A stretch of 64,000 bases of DNA from a virus: the IMG/VR virus record IMGVR_UViG_3300012988_000001, positions 246,414-310,413 of that record. One strand, 5' to 3'. A program made the position numbers and the translations under genes. Of this stretch, positions 21,980-63,533 are shown piece after piece. The notes beneath the pieces are model-generated. The model had not been told where the DNA came from. It saw only the letters and a list, made by a program, of their open reading frames with translations, and did not search any database. Each line of letters begins with the position of its first letter. The stretch's first letter is position 1.

Positions 21980-22348
21980 ATGATCTGGATTGCCCTTATT
22001 ACGGTAGTAACTCTTTATGTGCTGTACTTCATGTTTCGCTTTGCAGCAACAATTCAGGGTGTTATTTTAAAGACTGATACTAAATCAGCATTTGGCTTCA
22101 TCGCTGACTATCCAAAGTCTTGCATTATTGCAGCTTTAGTGGTTATGGGTTTGAGCCTTAGCCAGTACTACAATCATATCTACGCAATGTATGATTGCAC
22201 AGTACAGCAGAAAATCCATAAGGCCGCTAATAGTGAGTACTCATGGTATAATGCAGAATGTAACTTCCAAGATAAGAACGGTGTATTCATTAACATGAAA
22301 CGCGTCCGGGGTCTACCCGAAGGTGCAAACGAACAAGTAGAGGAATAA
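21980..22348 (+). CDS. small membrane protein (2 predicted TM)
   Basis: 122 aa, hydrophobic segments. Confidence 0.4.
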   Translation: MIWIALITVVTLYVLYFMFRFAATIQGVILKTDTKSAFGFIADYPKSCIIAALVVMGLSLSQYYNHIYAMYDCTVQQKIHKAANSEYSWYNAECNFQDKNGVFINMKRVRGLPEGANEQVEE

Positions 22349-22851
22349 TGATGTTTGAGTGGGATCAAGAGAAGCATGAGTACTTCGATCCTACTGAAGA
22401 CGGATTTACCCATATCAATACCTATAGTAAAGGTCGTACCGAATTGGGGAGGATGCTATCAAATTTCGCATTCTCCCCTTTTGTGTATGAAGAATATGGT
22501 AAGTTCAATTCAGTAGAGGCTTTTTGGTACTGGTACTTAACCGGACAAAAGCATGATGACTTACGTACCCTAAGTGGTTCTTATGCTAAAGTAAAAGGTC
22601 AGAGTTATCATGCTGACCGTACTGAGCATTCACTTACAGAAGAAACCATAGAAGTGATGCAAGGTGCTATTATATGTAAAATTGCACAGAATGAAAAACT
22701 ACAGGAGATGCTAATTTCTAGTACTCTTCCATTCTGTCATTATTACTATATGCATGGTCGGGTTATCAATCCATTTGATGGTCATGATTGGTTCTCTGAA
22801 ACATTGGAGGATATCAGGACTGCGTTAAAATCTGGGACAACTGACCATTAA
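22348..22851 (+). CDS. NADAR/YbiA-like (DUF1768) protein, putative ADP-ribose-nucleobase hydrolase
   Basis: LSNFAFSPF...SVEAFWYWYL... aligns with E. coli YbiA FSNFAAWPI...SEHYFQAQKF. C-terminal LQEML...L..CHYY parallels LRALL...LVEH. Confidence 0.5.
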   Translation: MMFEWDQEKHEYFDPTEDGFTHINTYSKGRTELGRMLSNFAFSPFVYEEYGKFNSVEAFWYWYLTGQKHDDLRTLSGSYAKVKGQSYHADRTEHSLTEETIEVMQGAIICKIAQNEKLQEMLISSTLPFCHYYYMHGRVINPFDGHDWFSETLEDIRTALKSGTTDH

Positions 22852-22862
22852 TGTGATATAAT
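22834..22862 (+). promoter_or_regulatory. class B promoter (GGGACA-17-TGaTATAAT) reading into an ORF-free region
   Basis: ctgggacaactgaccattaatgtgatataat. Confidence 0.6.
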
Positions 22863-23297
22863 AAATGTAGATGTAACAATTGTGGCTGCAATGCAGACGT
22901 ATTAAACCGAACCCCTTGAAAACGTAAAGGGACGATGAGCATGACCACACATGCGAAGTGCAGATGAAACCCGTTCGCGGCAATGCGGCACTATAAAGAG
23001 CGACGTAAGGCACGTAAACGCTCCAAGATAGACATATGAGGTCACTCACCAATATGCTAAGGGAGATGCTTAGGCATCACGTATAGAGCTTGTTCGAATA
23101 GGTTCTATACGAGTGTAGTAAGACTACGACCGTTGCACATGACTGTGATAGAGAGAAACAGAGCAACCCGCTTTCGTTCTTTGACCAATTTTAGTACGCT
23201 ATAGTTACGTCTAAAATTCAGAGAAATTCACAATTCGAAAATTCCGATGCCACCAGCGTCAGAACTTAACTCAGTACTTTAATTAGTACTTTTTTAT
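22863..23297 (+). ncRNA. candidate structured non-coding RNA (~430 nt, ORF-free, GC-richer than surroundings)
   Basis: No ORF above 15 codons on the + strand. Bounded by a class B promoter and a hairpin plus U-run terminator at 23273-23297. Internal hairpins include cgtatagag...tctatacg. Confidence 0.35.
23273..23297 (+). terminator. rho-independent terminator (AGTACT-ttaatt-AGTACT plus T-run)
   Basis: Read directly. Confidence 0.5.
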
Positions 23298-23395
23298 TGT
23301 CTTCATTCCCCCAGTGGGGGATGAAATTGCCTCAACAAACCTCGTCAGTAATAAAAGTACAAAATGAATTGAGTTACGATAGTAACGAAAATTCT

Positions 23396-23424
23396 TTGAC
23401 AATCGTAAGATTGGCAAATATGAA
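23396..23424 (+). promoter_or_regulatory. class A promoter (TTGACA-17-TATGAA)
   Basis: A second TTGACA-17-TATGAT lies 31 nt downstream. Its -10 overlaps the ATG of the next ORF. Confidence 0.5.
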
Positions 23425-23450
23425 CCTTGACAACAATACAGGAATAAAGT

Positions 23451-23687
23451 ATGATAACAGCAATTTGTGAAATGGCTGACCAAGCCACTGGTATTGAAGA
23501 TGCCAGATTGATCGAATCTCATGCTGAATCAGTAAAAGAGTACGAAGATGAAATGGATGAGATGATGGGTATGTATGGCTATCGTCTATACTTCTATGAC
23601 ATTGAGTGTACTGGCATTGAGGATTGGACTGAATCAGAAATATATGAGTTTATGCGTGTAAACGCACATTTGGAGATTGATGCATGA
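23451..23687 (+). CDS. small highly acidic protein (78 aa)
   Basis: ORF rich in D/E. Confidence 0.4.
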   Translation: MITAICEMADQATGIEDARLIESHAESVKEYEDEMDEMMGMYGYRLYFYDIECTGIEDWTESEIYEFMRVNAHLEIDA

Positions 23688-23863
23688 AAGTTAGATTAGA
23701 AGAAGATTACCCAGAGTACGAATACGGCCCTCGTGGTGGTGATATCCTTGAAGTAGTTTCACAGGATGAAGAAGAAGGTGTATTCTATTGCAAATTTGGT
23801 GATGAAACAGATTTTGCCATTTATGAATACGAAGTGGAAGAGGTTATCGAAGATGACCAATAA
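23684..23863 (+). CDS. small highly acidic protein (59 aa)
   Basis: ATGA overlap with the upstream ORF. MKVRLEEDYPEYEYGPRGGDILEVVSQDEEEG... Not in the ORF track because it is under 60 aa. Confidence 0.35.
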   Translation: MKVRLEEDYPEYEYGPRGGDILEVVSQDEEEGVFYCKFGDETDFAIYEYEVEEVIEDDQ

Positions 23864-24815
23864 ACTAAATCGTTCCATTGGCTGCTTAATGGGACTAGCA
23901 GTAGGTGATGCTGTCGGAACCACATTAGAGTTTAAAGAACGTGATTATGAGAACATTACTGATATGGTAGGTGGTGGTCCGTTTGATTTAGATCCGGGAC
24001 AATGGACTGATGATACCAGTATGGCACTATGCCTAGGTTACGCACTACTTGAAGGTCACGACATCAATAGCATAACAGAAAGTATAAAGTGGTCAGAAGC
24101 CCAATTAGTGAATTATGTTGATTGGTACAGAAACGGTTACTGTAGTTCTAATGGTCACTGTTTTGATATTGGTGGTACTACCCGCAACGCATTACTAAAT
24201 TACATTCGTGATGGTGTTTTGCGTAACAATGATCATTTCCTAGATTCAGGTAATGGTAGCCTTATGCGTCTTGCTCCTATTCCAATCTATTACAATACGA
24301 ATAACGCAGAAGAGTTGTTCACTCTTGTGTATGCTGCTGATCTAAGTAGTAGTACTACACACGCTAGCGAATTATGTCGTCAATCTTGTATTGCTTTCTC
24401 AGTACTTTTGAATCGTGCTATCAATGGCAGTACTAGTGAAGGTTCTCCGAATAAAGCGAATCTCTTAGACTTCCCAGCACAAGTTTGGAGAACATTTGGC
24501 GTTTCAAGTAATTTAGTACTTGACATAATGAACGGATCGTATCAAAATAAGACTCGTGATGAAATCAGTTCGAGTGGTTATGTGATTGATAGCCTAGAAG
24601 CCGCTCTATGGGCGTTCTGGAACACTGATAACTTCCGTGACGCAATCCTATTAGCTGCTAACTTAGGTGACGATGCAGACACCGTAGCGGCGATTACAGG
24701 ACAGATTGCAGGTGCATTCTATGGCCTAGATGGTATCCCTGATGATTGGGTACAGAAGATTGCGAAGAAAGATAAGATTTTGAAATTAGCAGAGGACTTG
24801 TATAATGCAGGTTGA
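23853..24815 (+). CDS. ADP-ribosylglycohydrolase (DraG/ARH family)
   Basis: GCLMGLAVGDAVGTTLEF, TDDTSMAL, FDIGGTTRNAL, GNGSLMRLAPI, DADTVAAITGQIAGAFYG motifs. The ATG at 23853 is the start chosen here. The six-frame track starts the ORF at an upstream in-frame ATG (23766). Confidence 0.85.
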   Translation: MTNKLNRSIGCLMGLAVGDAVGTTLEFKERDYENITDMVGGGPFDLDPGQWTDDTSMALCLGYALLEGHDINSITESIKWSEAQLVNYVDWYRNGYCSSNGHCFDIGGTTRNALLNYIRDGVLRNNDHFLDSGNGSLMRLAPIPIYYNTNNAEELFTLVYAADLSSSTTHASELCRQSCIAFSVLLNRAINGSTSEGSPNKANLLDFPAQVWRTFGVSSNLVLDIMNGSYQNKTRDEISSSGYVIDSLEAALWAFWNTDNFRDAILLAANLGDDADTVAAITGQIAGAFYGLDGIPDDWVQKIAKKDKILKLAEDLYNAG

Positions 24816-25248
24816 TAAGATTGTCAACGTAAAACTCTCTGTTGGTGATGTTGTTCAAATCGAACATACTTCGGTTGATGAACGTAAAAAGATAAAAGCC
24901 ACGGTAGCGTGTGCTAATATCAATCAAGGGAAAGGTATTGCTATATTCTGTGATGAAGATGGTAAGACCTATTCATGGAAACCATATCCTTCTCCACACG
25001 GAGAAGTAACACGTATTGATTGTGCTCGTGAAGATGTACTAATCAATCCATATGTTATGGCTTTCAGTAAAGAGGTGCAAAAGTTTCGTCCTGTTGACGC
25101 ATATTCTGGTGAGTACTACTATACTGAAAAAGTATGTGAAACTCACGAATGGAGCATTGCACTACCACCACACGGTGACCATATATGCAGAAACTGCAAA
25201 ATGGTCGTCAATGATAACTTTCAAGAAGTAGGGTATTATGGGAATTAA
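24805..25248 (+). CDS. hypothetical protein with C-terminal Cys/His cluster (CETHEW..HGDHICRNC)
   Basis: 147 aa. Confidence 0.4.
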   Translation: MQVDKIVNVKLSVGDVVQIEHTSVDERKKIKATVACANINQGKGIAIFCDEDGKTYSWKPYPSPHGEVTRIDCAREDVLINPYVMAFSKEVQKFRPVDAYSGEYYYTEKVCETHEWSIALPPHGDHICRNCKMVVNDNFQEVGYYGN

Positions 25249-25501
25249 TATGTCTTACTGTATGTTTGAAAATACAGTAAAAGCAATGGAAGAAATTAAA
25301 GAAAGAATGTGGGACGAAGATTTCGACCCAGATGAACTTTCTAAGTACGAACGTAGAGCGTATGATGCTCTATATGATTTAGTTGATAGTATCAAAGATG
25401 CTTTAGACGAAATTGAAGAACGTAAAGAAATGGAAGAAGCTGAACGCGAATTCCAAGAAGAATGTGACGACCAATACGCAGAGGAAGATGATGACAAATA
25501 A
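25238..25501 (+). CDS. very acidic small protein (87 aa), candidate DNA-mimic
   Basis: About 40% D/E. ...EEAEREFQEECDDQYAEEDDDK. Confidence 0.45.
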   Translation: MGINMSYCMFENTVKAMEEIKERMWDEDFDPDELSKYERRAYDALYDLVDSIKDALDEIEERKEMEEAEREFQEECDDQYAEEDDDK

Positions 25502-44910: not shown

Positions 44911-44941
44911 AATGCCAGTACTTAAGTACTGGCATTTTTTA
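44911..44941 (+). terminator. rho-independent terminator after the tRNA pair. Its hairpin also overlaps the 3' end of the minus-strand HNH gene
   Basis: aatgccagtac-ttaa-gtactggcatt plus ttttt. Confidence 0.65.
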
Positions 44942-45764
44942 TAGAATCATAGGAATCTACCATAGAAACCAATTCATCATATGTAATACTTGATTGTGTA
45001 CCTTTTGATTGATTCTCAGAATGTAACATGAGTTCACAATTTAACGGGTGCTTTATATAATAGGGATCATAATTGAATTTTATAGCATCTCTAATTGAAA
45101 CTTTGTGATCTCGTGAAACACCATTTATATTAATATCATTTCCCTTAGTTTTTCTCCACCCATGCTTGTTGAGAAATTCAATATCAAACAAATCGGGGTA
45201 ATGATAAACATTAAAAGTGAATATAAATTTAGCTCTCCCATTTTCGGTGTAACAGTGTTTACAATTATTACAGTATCCAGTTTGCTTTCTGTATGAACCA
45301 ACAAAAGAACAATTCTTACATTTACATATAAAGATCTTTTCAAACTCACCAACTTCATCTTTTATTTTTTTAGGATTAGTAGTAGATTTATTATATAATC
45401 TTTTCGTGGGTGATTTCTTTTTATTTCTTGGTATTTTTGAAACAGATATCGAAATTTTTTGTTTAGTTTCCTCGGTCATTTCCCTGTTGAAATTACTACA
45501 ACTTTTACTACAATATTTTTGTGTTGGGAAGTTATAGGTAAAATCTTCCCCACAGTACTCACACTTTTTAAGTTTATTAATTTTTAATTTTTTACCTTGA
45601 CATTTATTAGAACAAAAAGCAGTAGTGCTTCCATTTTTAATACACCTGCGAATTTCTTTCACTTCTCGTGAAATTTCGACTTGACAGCCATCACATTCTA
45701 GTGTTATTCTAGAACGACTTTTTAATGACGAAATATCGTTTAATGTTATATTTGTTAATTTCAT
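44922..45764 (-). CDS. HNH-type homing endonuclease (Cys-rich Zn fingers), the only convincing minus-strand gene
   Basis: 280 aa with multiple CxxC pairs. C-terminus ...GVSRDHKVSIRDAIKFNYDP...NCELMLHSENQSKG (His-Me finger-like). RBS on the minus strand. Confidence 0.6.
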   Translation of the reverse strand: MKLTNITLNDISSLKSRSRITLECDGCQVEISREVKEIRRCIKNGSTTAFCSNKCQGKKLKINKLKKCEYCGEDFTYNFPTQKYCSKSCSNFNREMTEETKQKISISVSKIPRNKKKSPTKRLYNKSTTNPKKIKDEVGEFEKIFICKCKNCSFVGSYRKQTGYCNNCKHCYTENGRAKFIFTFNVYHYPDLFDIEFLNKHGWRKTKGNDININGVSRDHKVSIRDAIKFNYDPYYIKHPLNCELMLHSENQSKGTQSSITYDELVSMVDSYDSIKNAST

Positions 45765-45830
45765 AATTTATCCTCTGCTAAATCTTTATTTAGGTTCAAA
45801 CCGCATGGGGTACACCAAAACGGAGAAAAA

Positions 45831-46232
45831 ATGAGAAAAAATGATCTAATCAAAATGTTACAAGAGATTGAGGGAAATCCACAGATTGTGATATGGAATG
45901 GTTATGTTGATGACTACATGGACATTGACAAAGGTACTGAGAAGATTACTCTTGTTAAAGAAACTGAAGAATTTCTCTTCAATGCTTTAAAAGGCCAATG
46001 GTGTCAGATGAATAATACTTGGGATATTCCAGAAGAGGAACTTACTAAGCTCGCTGCACATGCCAAAGAGTTACATAAAAACAAAGAATATGATTTTGCT
46101 AACCCATACGTGACTCCAGAAGAATTCGAGAGTTGGTATGGCAAAAGATCCTTGACAAAGTACGTTCTATCCCCTAAACTACGTGGTAAAACATCATTAG
46201 GCATATATCACAACGCAGATATCAATTACTAG
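45831..46232 (+). CDS. ELI-family protein
   Basis: MRKNDLIKMLQEIEGNPQIVIWN. Confidence 0.45.
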   Translation: MRKNDLIKMLQEIEGNPQIVIWNGYVDDYMDIDKGTEKITLVKETEEFLFNALKGQWCQMNNTWDIPEEELTKLAAHAKELHKNKEYDFANPYVTPEEFESWYGKRSLTKYVLSPKLRGKTSLGIYHNADINY

Positions 46233-55533: not shown

Positions 55534-55620
55534 ATTTACTGTTAGCTCAGATGGTAGAGCGGTTGTACTGGTGAGACTCCAGACAAAAGGGACACTGGTT
55601 CGATGCCAGTACAGTAAACC
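55534..55620 (+). tRNA. atypical tRNA-like gene. It has acceptor, D-arm, T-arm and CCA, but an 8 to 10 nt expanded anticodon or variable region and no clean anticodon loop
   Basis: Acceptor TTACTGT/ACAGTAA, D-arm tagctcagatggtagagc, T-arm actggttcgatgccagt, CCA. The middle folds as gtactgg-tgagact-ccagac. Confidence 0.3.
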
Positions 55621-55625
55621 ACAAT

Positions 55626-62810: not shown

Positions 62811-63316
62811 AGAATATTACAACACCAGATCGCAAGGCATTTGATTTGATTATGGGATTTATCGAAGATTACGATTGCTGTAATATGGCAACGTATGATT
62901 CAGTAATACACCACAATAACGCTCTAAACAATGAACAGTACTACAATTCTGAACGTACTGATATGCATTGTTTTAAATCTAGTCTTGGTAATCATCCATT
63001 AGAAGTAACACTAAAATTTGGAACACAGGAAGATATGAGTTTCCTCATCTATCCAAAGAATGAGAATGGTATACGTCTTATCAACTTCATGTACAATTTT
63101 GATGATGCTAATGGTGATGAAGAATGGTATGAGAAGTCAAACCATTGGTGGGCTGATTTTTGTATTGAATTGTATGATACAGAGGAAGAATACTTCCAAG
63201 CTAGTACGGTTGATGATCTACTTCTAACTCCAGAGGAAAACCAAATGTTTATTGATTTCAATAATGCATTTACCCAACATTTGATCAAACGCATAGGAGA
63301 AAAACACTATGGATAA
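62807..63316 (+). CDS. FQ-motif family protein
   Basis: ...LYDTEEEYFQASTVDDLLLTPEENQMFIDF. Confidence 0.5.
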   Translation: MKNITTPDRKAFDLIMGFIEDYDCCNMATYDSVIHHNNALNNEQYYNSERTDMHCFKSSLGNHPLEVTLKFGTQEDMSFLIYPKNENGIRLINFMYNFDDANGDEEWYEKSNHWWADFCIELYDTEEEYFQASTVDDLLLTPEENQMFIDFNNAFTQHLIKRIGEKHYG

Positions 63317-63533
63317 TCAACACCGTAAAATTACAGGCTATCGTGAACTAAGTGCAGAAGAGATTGCACTCATGAATGAAGTCAAAGAAATGAGTGCTCA
63401 AGTAGGGCAGTTAATTGAGAAACTACACTCAACCCCAGACGTTGACAAACGCTGGCTAAATATTGCCAAGACAGATTTACAGAAAGGCTTCATGAGTGCT
63501 GTACGCAGCGTTGCAAAGCCTGATTCATTCTAA
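63309..63533 (+). CDS. hypothetical protein
   Basis: ORF. Confidence 0.4.
   Translation: MDNQHRKITGYRELSAEEIALMNEVKEMSAQVGQLIEKLHSTPDVDKRWLNIAKTDLQKGFMSAVRSVAKPDSF

Follow-up and report, generated by a model that had tools for sequence, protein, structure and literature searches.

A predicted structured non-coding RNA gene lies between a NADAR-like gene and an ADP-ribosyl hydrolase operon in a jumbo phage

Background

NADAR proteins reverse the ADP-ribosylation of guanine by DarT1, whereas DarT2 modifies thymine (PMC11543638, PMC11825919). The T4 protein gp30.3, or AdfN, is a NADAR that removes guanine ADP-ribose from DNA and defeats DarTG1 (PMC11825919), and the T4 enzyme is also active on RNA that carries ADP-ribosylated guanine (PMC11833690). 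Phage NADARs typically carry a Glu-to-His substitution (PMC11543638, PMC11825919), and in DarT1-associated NADARs a Lys seven residues after the Glu (K95 of E. coli C7, K50 of P. nicotianae) coordinates phosphate and is essential (PMC11543638). Tri1 of Serratia proteamaculans, the immunity protein against the type VI secretion toxin Tre1, acts by a dual mechanism (PMC8120803), and GOLLD and ROOL are phage- or prophage-borne RNAs of hundreds of nucleotides (nt), with many conserved helices and pseudoknots and no fixed neighbour gene, which occur in tRNA-rich genomes (PMC12286853, PMC5737381). Here we analyse a locus in a 64,000-nt segment of a jumbo phage (IMG/VR record IMGVR_UViG_3300012988_000001, positions 246,414 to 310,413; this whole stretch, one strand, is called the window and its numbering is used throughout), in which a gene for a NADAR-like protein, a structured non-coding RNA gene and an operon encoding an ADP-ribosyl(arginine) hydrolase (ARH) follow one another on the + strand. 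NADAR domains occur in about 48% of jumbo phages and ARH domains in about 5% (PMC9503650), so that neither enzyme is new for such phages, and our emphasis is on the RNA.

Results

The RNA gene extends from about 22869 to 23348 (+ strand, about 480 nt), its 5' end being placed from the promoter and its 3' end from the end of conservation. The gap that contains it, 22852-23450, has no gene call, and no + strand open reading frame (ORF) of at least 30 amino acids (aa) lies within 22863-23296. The promoter (22834-22862, +) is of the sigma-70 type with an extended -10 (TGaTATAAT) and consists of a -35 element, GGGACA (22834-22839), located within the 3'-terminal part of the NADAR ORF, the TG at 22854-22855 and TATAAT at 22857-22862. 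A promoter scan returned 10 of 12 matches at this place, with the TG ahead of the -10; TGnTATAAT is invariant in 15 aligned loci, preceded by a TTGACA-like -35, and the promoter is found upstream of 35 of the 37 RNA copies examined, the remaining two being cut off at the end of the fetched locus. A preliminary description of the locus, made by a model from the letters alone, had spoken of a promoter-driven, ORF-free region of about 430 nt, and the extended -10 and the empty gap are in line with this.

The structure was derived by comparing copies. Fourteen loci were fetched and aligned, and motif scans of IMG/VR, GTDB and metagenomes brought the number of distinct copies to 29 and later to 45. 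The statistics of the nested structure refer to the 29-copy alignment folded with RNAalifold, with slid partners and 500 shuffles as controls. The nested fold comprises 99 pairs in about 20 helices and is 96.3% paired, against about 40% with the partner slid, percentages that are somewhat inflated since alignment and structure come from the same sequences. The counts of pairs changed on both sides are unaffected by this, and 48 nested pairs have changed in this way, with a covariation score of 0.367 against 0.04-0.06 for slid partners, a value that 0 of the 500 shuffles reached. Three more helices emerged when all columns were compared with one another for covariation, each of them a pseudoknot on the + strand. 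The first joins a 5' strand to a hairpin loop (22880-22885 with 22945-22950), the second pairs AUG with CAU (22983-22985 with 23033-23035), and the third connects the loop UUCGA with UCGAA 140 nt away (23093-23097 with 23235-23239), the partners being UUGUA and UACAA in other copies. Their 15 pairs are 89.8% paired, against 20-48% when slid, and score 0.50 for covariation against at most 0.125, with 11 pairs changed on both sides. Additionally, G-U pairs are frequent on the + strand, which identifies it as the RNA strand, the z-score of the minimum free energy is -3.96, and indels among copies of the gap are not multiples of three. The segment 22869-23348 is a structured RNA with covariation-supported pseudoknots. 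Two further helices are unproven: the closing helix GAUGA/UCGUC proposed by RNAalifold (helix 2; 22934-38 with 23342-46) is either invariant or broken, with no compensation, and GCUAAGG/CCGUUGC (23056-63 with 23130-36) is invariant.

The 3' part of the gene contains two successive hairpins. A terminator-like hairpin, AGUACU/AGUACU followed by a U-run (23273-23295, +), lies within the conserved element about 430 nt downstream of the promoter, and 155 nt separate it from p78, which opens the ARH operon. The stem of this hairpin covaries (helix 19), with the variants AGTACT/AGTACT, GTACAC/GTGTAC and AGAGAC/GTCTCT among the copies. It is followed, on the same strand, by a second hairpin (UUCAUUCCCC/GGGGGAUGAA, 23302-23325; helix 20), which is 95% paired with little variation, and by an invariant tail, CCUCAACAAAYCYCGUCAR (23330-23348). 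This whole post-terminator stretch, 23302-23348, is conserved as well as the core in all copies, regardless of the sequence downstream, and phage EJP2 has lost the terminator hairpin by deletion and kept the second one. Two isoforms may exist, a short one of about 427 nt and a read-through product.

The RNA matches no described family. When the whole window was searched with Rfam 15 (4227 models), no model reached its gathering score within the gap. With the limit relaxed to E <= 10, the region 22700-23600 returned only chance-level matches to miRNA, snoRNA and CRISPR-repeat models (E 0.48-8.4). This negative covers tRNA, tmRNA, RNase P, group I and II introns, GOLLD, ROOL and HEARO, and ARAGORN likewise called neither a tRNA nor a tmRNA there. 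We found no published description of the family, which is a weak negative given incomplete coverage of the literature. A likeness to RNase P (ACGACCGUUGCA...ACAGAGCAACCCGCUU), noticed by eye against the E. coli M1 sequence, was dropped because cmscan lists no RNase P model, and ncRNA001 and ncRNA002, defined by RNA sequencing (RNA-seq) in the related Pseudomonas jumbo phage PA5oct, are not homologues by nhmmer.

Many genome records are blank at the RNA locus or hold mini-ORFs there. Short hypothetical proteins are annotated inside the RNA gene of 7t3, PHA46, Hallingskeid, fHe-Yen9-04 (g347/g348) and 121Q (121Q_516), and the window has counterparts of such ORFs at 22825-23052 and 23283-23522, both on the minus strand; these annotations are almost certainly spurious.

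Copies of the RNA are widespread among jumbo phages. BLAST of 22852-23450 found 62 phage records, all of them jumbo phages, spread over eight host genera with identities of 70-85% and mostly unannotated, and across the searches with the window and E. coli island queries the number was 62-70. Each record has 3-5 matching places by BLAST, and we put the family at two to five copies per genome; full-length copies number three in 121Q and two or more in each of Serratia phage BF and three metagenomic jumbo contigs. The window has a single copy by nhmmer, and neither BLAST at word size 7 nor nhmmer found a further one in it. The variable hairpins differ between paralogues, and the core is invariant. 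In Asteriusvirus the paralogues lie between a structural gene and Dps, after a sigma-factor gene, and between endonuclease VII and the baseplate hub. At the last of these sites (A4, JNE01, 121Q) the flanking genes are on the minus strand and converge on the RNA, which excludes a leader role there.

Furthermore, the family reaches into temperate elements. Two of the 5426 complete E. coli genomes (LR-29-1, NZ_AP027515.1, L031:8640-9270; and NZ_CM130020.1) carry full copies with the same promoter, in an island between ffs and ybaA that contains IS3, integrase remnants and DUF4326, DUF488 and dual-OB genes, with about 700 nt more of ORF-free sequence 3' of the RNA. When the E. coli copy served as query, the GenBank phages that matched were jumbo phages only, including Rak2-like Klebsiella phages with weak matches to the core. 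In Citrobacter amalonaticus P55 (L033:3480-4112) a complete copy, again with this promoter, sits at the edge of an integrated element, immediately downstream of a large serine recombinase and ahead of a CI-type repressor, and four metagenome contigs have this layout in common. No homologue of the 165-aa ORF that adjoins the RNA in temperate elements turned up among 50,697 phage records, and no copy of the RNA was found on plasmids. Overall, the RNA appears to be an independent gene, neither the leader of the ARH operon nor a component of an ADP-ribose module.

Upstream of the RNA, the ORF at 22348-22851 (+) encodes a 167-aa protein with the motifs LSNF (37-40) and SVEAF (55-59), which the preliminary description had assigned to the NADAR family with the expectation of a Pfam match. 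The family was right, and the Pfam model falls short of showing it: PF08719 scores 16.2 bits (E = 0.013), below its gathering score of 35.1, and at E <= 0.1 it detects 3 of 28 family members. A single-sequence search of the PDB gave no match, and the function-unknown family PHROG 652 matched at 5e-45. Of 60 homologues, all lacking a precomputed Pfam domain, 28 were aligned into a profile (A1). The top three matches of this profile in the PDB are exactly the three NADARs with solved structures (8bau, 2e-4; YbiA, 2b3w, 0.013; 8bat, 0.35), so that profile searches do place the protein in the family. The AlphaFold2 (AF2) model built from A1 has a pLDDT confidence of 91, and Foldseek against the PDB gave YbiA, 8bau and 8bat as the only significant matches (probability 0.99-1.0, template-modelling (TM) score 0.53-0.60). 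Alignment of A1 with T4 gp30.3 by hhalign (probability 88.8%, E = 2.5e-6) puts E57 on the catalytic E36 of AdfN.

Three residues, E57, K81 and H131, are invariant in the family. E57 aligns with E43 of 8bau, K81 corresponds to K75 of 8bau, and H131 occupies the site of a Glu or Asp in cellular NADARs (E125 of P. nicotianae NADAR), its correspondence to the AdfN His having been obtained by counting past the hhalign block. The Lys seven residues past the catalytic Glu is absent, the position being Leu64/Tyr63 and not basic across the family. Profile, predicted fold and hhalign together, where Pfam alone is insufficient, argue that the protein, though divergent, genuinely belongs to the phage clade of the NADAR superfamily, and ADP-ribosylated guanine would be its substrate. 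The toxin named for it in the preliminary description was wrong: it had NADARs reversing DarT2-type modification, and their guanine substrate is that of DarT1.

Compared with AdfN (PF08010; superfamily PF08719), the protein is likewise a small, stand-alone, early phage NADAR fold, in which E57 corresponds to E36 and His replaces Glu/Asp, and neither has an N-terminal extension of the DarG1 type. The similarity is at profile level only, PF08010 matching 5 of 28 family members with a best E of 0.002, and the window protein differs in lacking the Lys seven residues after the Glu and in belonging to a separate large family, PHROG 652, with fusions of its own. E. coli YbiA (2B3W), a housekeeping NADAR N-glycosidase of riboflavin metabolism, is the best structural match (TM 0.60) and shares the LSNF...E region, but the identity is 17%, the YbiA-type Glu is a His in the phage family, and the context is viral.

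An exhaustive profile search put the family at 2121 representative clusters (50% identity), 686 of them at E <= 1e-30, and many members are multidomain. When ten long members were scanned, Macro, SLOG (YAcAr), DUF4326 or canonical NADAR domains turned up in seven and a calcineurin-type phosphoesterase in one; fusions of the Macro/SLOG/DUF4326 type form the ADP-ribose-processing network described for DNA viruses (PMC9503650). Some members, such as P0197 (1415 aa), are giant multidomain proteins with a canonical Pfam NADAR domain and DUF4326, which indicates that two NADAR types can coexist in one polypeptide. The family would thereby add a large, divergent branch of phage NADARs that is invisible to the Pfam NADAR model.

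Downstream of the RNA, the ORF at 23853-24815 (+) encodes the ARH, a 320-aa hydrolase of the Tri1/DraG type. The preliminary description had called it a DraG/ARH glycohydrolase, and Pfam ADP_ribosyl_GH (PF03747) agrees over its full length (E = 1.4e-68; 232 bits, the cut-off being 26.2; all 287 profile positions covered). The ORF could be extended upstream to 23766, and homologues and public gene calls favour the start at 23853. The closest solved structure is Tri1 (6dre, 1e-79), and the best NCBIfam model is the Tri1 equivalog NF041672 (7.5e-107, 357 bits), which remains below its cut-off of 490 because only profile positions 65-358 match, the first 64, the toxin-occluding extension of Tri1, having no counterpart. 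The blocks GDAxGTTLEF, WTDDTSMALCL, CFDIG and LGDDADxVAA are identical in the two proteins, and the metal and catalytic residues are the same as in Tri1 (E26, T52-D53-D54-T55, D105, D273-D274-A-D276-T277). With the conserved Asp and Thr residues in place in this alignment, the binuclear metal site is intact.

The ARH is the third gene of an operon of five overlapping genes, 23451-25501 (+), in which successive start and stop codons overlap, by ATGA between p78 and p59 or by 11 nt. The others are p78 (23451-23687; 78 aa), p59 (23684-23863; 59 aa), p147 (24805-25248) and the acidic p87 (25238-25501), the last two each with an 11-nt overlap with the preceding gene. A candidate promoter, read from the sequence and predicted only, would be TTGACA, a 17-nt spacer and TATGAA at 23396-23424 (+); the block TTCTTTGACA is conserved among copies at this locus, and the promoter scan did not call it. 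Two very acidic small ORFs had been reported between the enzymes, and they are real and conserved, p78 and p59 each having a pI of about 4.05 and 21 Asp/Glu residues. They are not free-floating, however, but form the first two genes of the ARH operon. EJP2, XbC2 and CBB have a protein 42-54% identical to p78 at the corresponding place and GAP32 has a remnant, and p78 has no Pfam or NCBIfam match. The 74-aa ORF that Hallingskeid has there is not homologous to p78. p87 is syntenic across all genera, including those without the ARH, and matches PHROG 26791, of unknown function.

The AF2 model of p59 (pLDDT 87.5) is a five-stranded, SH3-like beta-barrel, for which the best folds are SH3 domains at a TM score of about 0.6 and a non-significant E-value; PHROG 14198 matches at E = 5e-7, and its 'exonuclease' label looks unreliable. 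One contig (L090, 535-1677; Logan ERR14654858_24831) encodes an in-frame p59-ARH fusion of 380 aa with no separate internal ATG and the junction ...EELIDDDKLNRSKGCLMGLAVGD, in which the ARH domain begins near residue 58, the corresponding point in Tri1 being near 65. The fusion is single but clean evidence for a physical partnership. This contig is without p147, and fused and split forms coexist among close relatives. We consider that p59 is probably the split N-terminal module of the ARH, in a Tri1-like architecture. The likeness to Tri1 comprises about 55% identity over the hydrolase domain with all motifs, and the N-terminal module of the fused relative, about 58 aa, has the same length as the toxin-occluding extension. 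Unlike in Tri1, the window module is a separate gene, without sequence similarity to the Tri1 extension and with a predicted SH3-like fold, and it sits in a phage operon whose ARH scores below the NF041672 cut-off. On this reading the ARH and p59 would be a phage version of the 'bind and erase' architecture of Tri1, split over two genes.

Finally, we compared the arrangement across relatives. By DNA, at similarities of 80% and below, the relatives are the Salmonella phages Munch/7t3, the Klebsiella phage fENko-Kae01 and, more widely, jumbo phages of about 350 kb in the 121Q/PBECO4/GAP32/CBB/BF group. The order NADAR-like gene, RNA, ARH is found in Munch, fENko-Kae01, EJP2, Hallingskeid, XbC2 and Serratia BF, that is in at least five genera, which indicates one inherited arrangement and not independent events. 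GAP32, CBB and fHe-Yen9-04 are without the ARH and keep the NADAR-like gene and the RNA. Additionally, in Mimasvirus and Eneladusvirus an ORF of 480-590 aa without a Pfam domain (CBB_349, L007:525-2249; GAP32_343; BF_0348; L005-L009) lies between the NADAR-like gene and the RNA, with a strong terminator (ATACCAGCnnnnGCTGGTATTTTTTT) between it and the RNA promoter. NADAR and ARH are in different transcription units. The two ADP-ribose-removing families around an ORF-free locus are where the preliminary description had placed them, and a counter-defence role remains the best reading of each enzyme; its idea of one coherent counter-defence island that takes in the RNA is unsupported, given the loss of the ARH in three phages, the intervening ORF, the separate transcription units, the RNA copies elsewhere and the lack of an ADP-ribosyltransferase (ART), macro, Nudix or NAD-salvage domain in a scan of 107 window ORFs. 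We read NADAR and ARH as two separate early-region hydrolases that are neighbours by happenstance and not as a demonstrated functional unit.

Discussion

The account that we favour, with a probability of about 0.6, has three parts side by side: a NADAR active in counter-defence, an ARH operon, and an independent, trans-acting RNA. The NADAR-fold protein would be an early-expressed N-glycosidase of the AdfN-like Glu-to-His clade, which would remove ADP-ribose from guanines of the phage DNA, and possibly of RNA, after attack by DarT1-type or similar guanine ARTs. The ARH would erase arginine-linked ADP-ribose from proteins, and p59 may serve as its detachable N-terminal module for targeting or toxin binding, as in Tri1. 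The RNA, transcribed from its own sigma-70 promoter as a product of about 430-480 nt, would be one paralogue of a multi-copy family and act in trans. Counter-defence is the best reading of each enzyme because AdfN of T4 counters DarTG1 and Tri1 counters the Tre1 toxin.

Several points weigh against this account. The Pfam score of the NADAR-like protein is below the gathering score, and the Lys after the catalytic Glu is missing from its family. AdfN itself depends on an unknown T-even factor (PMC11825919), and in the view of Iyer et al. phage NADARs act chiefly on soluble ADP-ribose derivatives (PMC9503650). The p59-ARH fusion was seen in one contig, the other p59 homologues being stand-alone proteins of 55-59 aa. 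The Pfam scan of the 64-kb window gave no ART that could be partner or target, and the constant order of NADAR, RNA and ARH across genera, together with the DUF4326 gene of the E. coli island, makes a functional link between the RNA and ADP-ribose conceivable.

An unlikely alternative is that the hydrolases have no part in counter-defence and instead manage ADP-ribose chemistry that arises from the phage itself or from host signalling, the NADAR acting on soluble ADP-ribose derivatives such as cyclic ADP-ribose-type signals or by-products of RNA repair, and the ARH resetting Alt/Mod-like arginine marks as a timing switch. The NADAR-like family is often fused to Macro, SLOG, DUF4326 and phosphoesterase domains, a network that Iyer et al. 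tie to low-molecular-weight ADP-ribose derivatives, and T4-like NADARs are early genes that adjoin ARTs (PMC9503650); the Lys for hydrolysis of DNA adducts in DarT1-type NADARs is also not conserved here. On the other hand, the sole phage NADAR tested in vivo, AdfN of T4, which belongs to the His-type clade, acts on ADP-ribosylated guanine in DNA and defeats DarTG1 (PMC11825919), the Pfam scan shows no ART, SLOG, macro or NAD-salvage domain in the window, and Tri1, to which the ARH is closest among characterised proteins, confers immunity against a hostile ART.

For the RNA, we regard it as an even bet that it represents an undescribed class of large pseudoknotted RNA, of ribozyme- or ROOL/GOLLD-like complexity, with several diverged paralogues in jumbo phages of the Rak2/121Q/GAP32 type and copies in integrase-borne temperate elements of Enterobacteriaceae, which would act in trans in phage-host conflict as a catalyst, a cage or scaffold, or a decoy for a host factor. 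The most adventurous version of this reading would make the RNA a substrate or decoy in nucleic-acid ADP-ribosylation that is serviced by both NADAR and ARH. A trans-acting, folded RNA is suggested by the early sigma-70 promoter, the anciently diverged paralogues with an invariant core, the three pseudoknots and the occurrence in both lytic and temperate carriers. With low confidence, and by analogy with ROOL and GOLLD, it could be a scaffold, decoy or catalyst acting in trans; our guess at its function is a folded scaffold or decoy that would bind a host or phage macromolecule early in infection. It shares with GOLLD and ROOL the properties given above, but it has no sequence or structure match to them, its carriers are enterobacterial jumbo phages, and it forms a family with several diverged, promoter-bearing paralogues per genome that are not directly adjacent to tRNA genes.

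That the region is instead a long cis-acting leader, a riboswitch or attenuator controlling read-through into p78-p59-ARH, we hold to be very doubtful. Here the RNA is invariably followed by this operon, its terminator-like hairpin lies on the same strand 155 nt upstream of p78, and conservation continues beyond the hairpin. Elsewhere, however, paralogues stand upstream of unrelated genes, one of them convergent with minus-strand genes (A4, JNE01, 121Q), and the copies in temperate elements follow an integrase. Moreover, EJP2 has deleted the terminator hairpin and kept the rest, and the size and the three pseudoknots far exceed known attenuators.

It is highly improbable that the RNA cooperates with the flanking hydrolases, either as a decoy for RNA-targeting ARTs or as an NAD-capped RNA that takes part in, or is protected from, RNAylation. 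In its favour are the conserved NADAR-RNA-ARH order across genera, the position of the E. coli copy 2.5 kb from a DUF4326 gene, a domain fused to the NADAR-like family elsewhere, and the ability of NADARs and ARH-like enzymes to act on certain ADP-ribosylated RNAs (PMC11833690). However, no ADP-ribose gene adjoins the other paralogues of these genomes, the Citrobacter-type elements show none within the fetched regions, and the ARH has been lost in three phages that keep the RNA. Finally, it is hardly credible that the gap is decayed coding sequence, a set of small genes or a DNA-level constraint such as a replication origin: some GenBank records do annotate short hypothetical proteins here, on either strand, and T4-type origins are promoter-linked, but these mini-ORFs vary in strand and position, the + strand lacks an ORF as described, the indels ignore the reading frame, and the 48 nested and 11 pseudoknot pairs compensated on both sides come with strand-specific G-U pairs.

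We give the RNA, which the preliminary description mentioned only in passing, more weight than the two enzymes, which are fairly ordinary. A new large RNA that combines about 20 helices with several pseudoknots is a rare find, and RNase P, group I and II introns, OLE, GOLLD and ROOL have proved to be catalysts or unusual assemblies. Since this RNA occurs in cultivable phages of E. coli, Salmonella, Klebsiella, Serratia and Erwinia (121Q, PBECO4, Munch, GAP32, CBB, BF), genetics, RNA-seq and cryo-electron microscopy are feasible.

The remainder of the window, with a GC content of about 38%, 14 tRNA genes and genes nearly all on the + strand, offers some minor observations. The 366-kb metagenome contig k141_2757135 (ENA ERZ27311759) holds exact copies of two window proteins, and the genes called on it match the ORFs used. 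When 107 window ORFs were scanned with Pfam, only 17 families were recognised, about 85% of the ORFs having no match, and the scan gave no ART, macro, Nudix, SLOG or NAD-salvage domain. The recognised genes include topoisomerase II subunits, DNA polymerase III alpha, a delta'-like protein, TelA, Band_7/SPFH, PTH2 peptidyl-tRNA hydrolase, an Rv2179c-like 3'-5' exoribonuclease, Cpn10, DUF1353 and two HNH endonucleases. At 45001-46000 the GC content falls to 0.30 with reversed skews, in coincidence with a rare minus-strand ORF (44925-45764), and this looks like an inserted mobile or foreign gene. ARAGORN reports a tRNA of undetermined identity with the four-base anticodon CTGG at 55536-55621 (+), at the end of a tRNA-gene cluster, which could be a frameshift-suppressor-like tRNA or a mis-call. 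Lastly, the 74-aa protein at 63309-63530 (+) belongs to the Acb2/Tad1 family (PF24729, E = 4e-19), resembles T4 Vs.4 and is likely a sponge for a cyclic nucleotide or for gcADPR against CBASS or Thoeris; this bona fide anti-defence gene lies 38 kb away from the NADAR-RNA-ARH locus.

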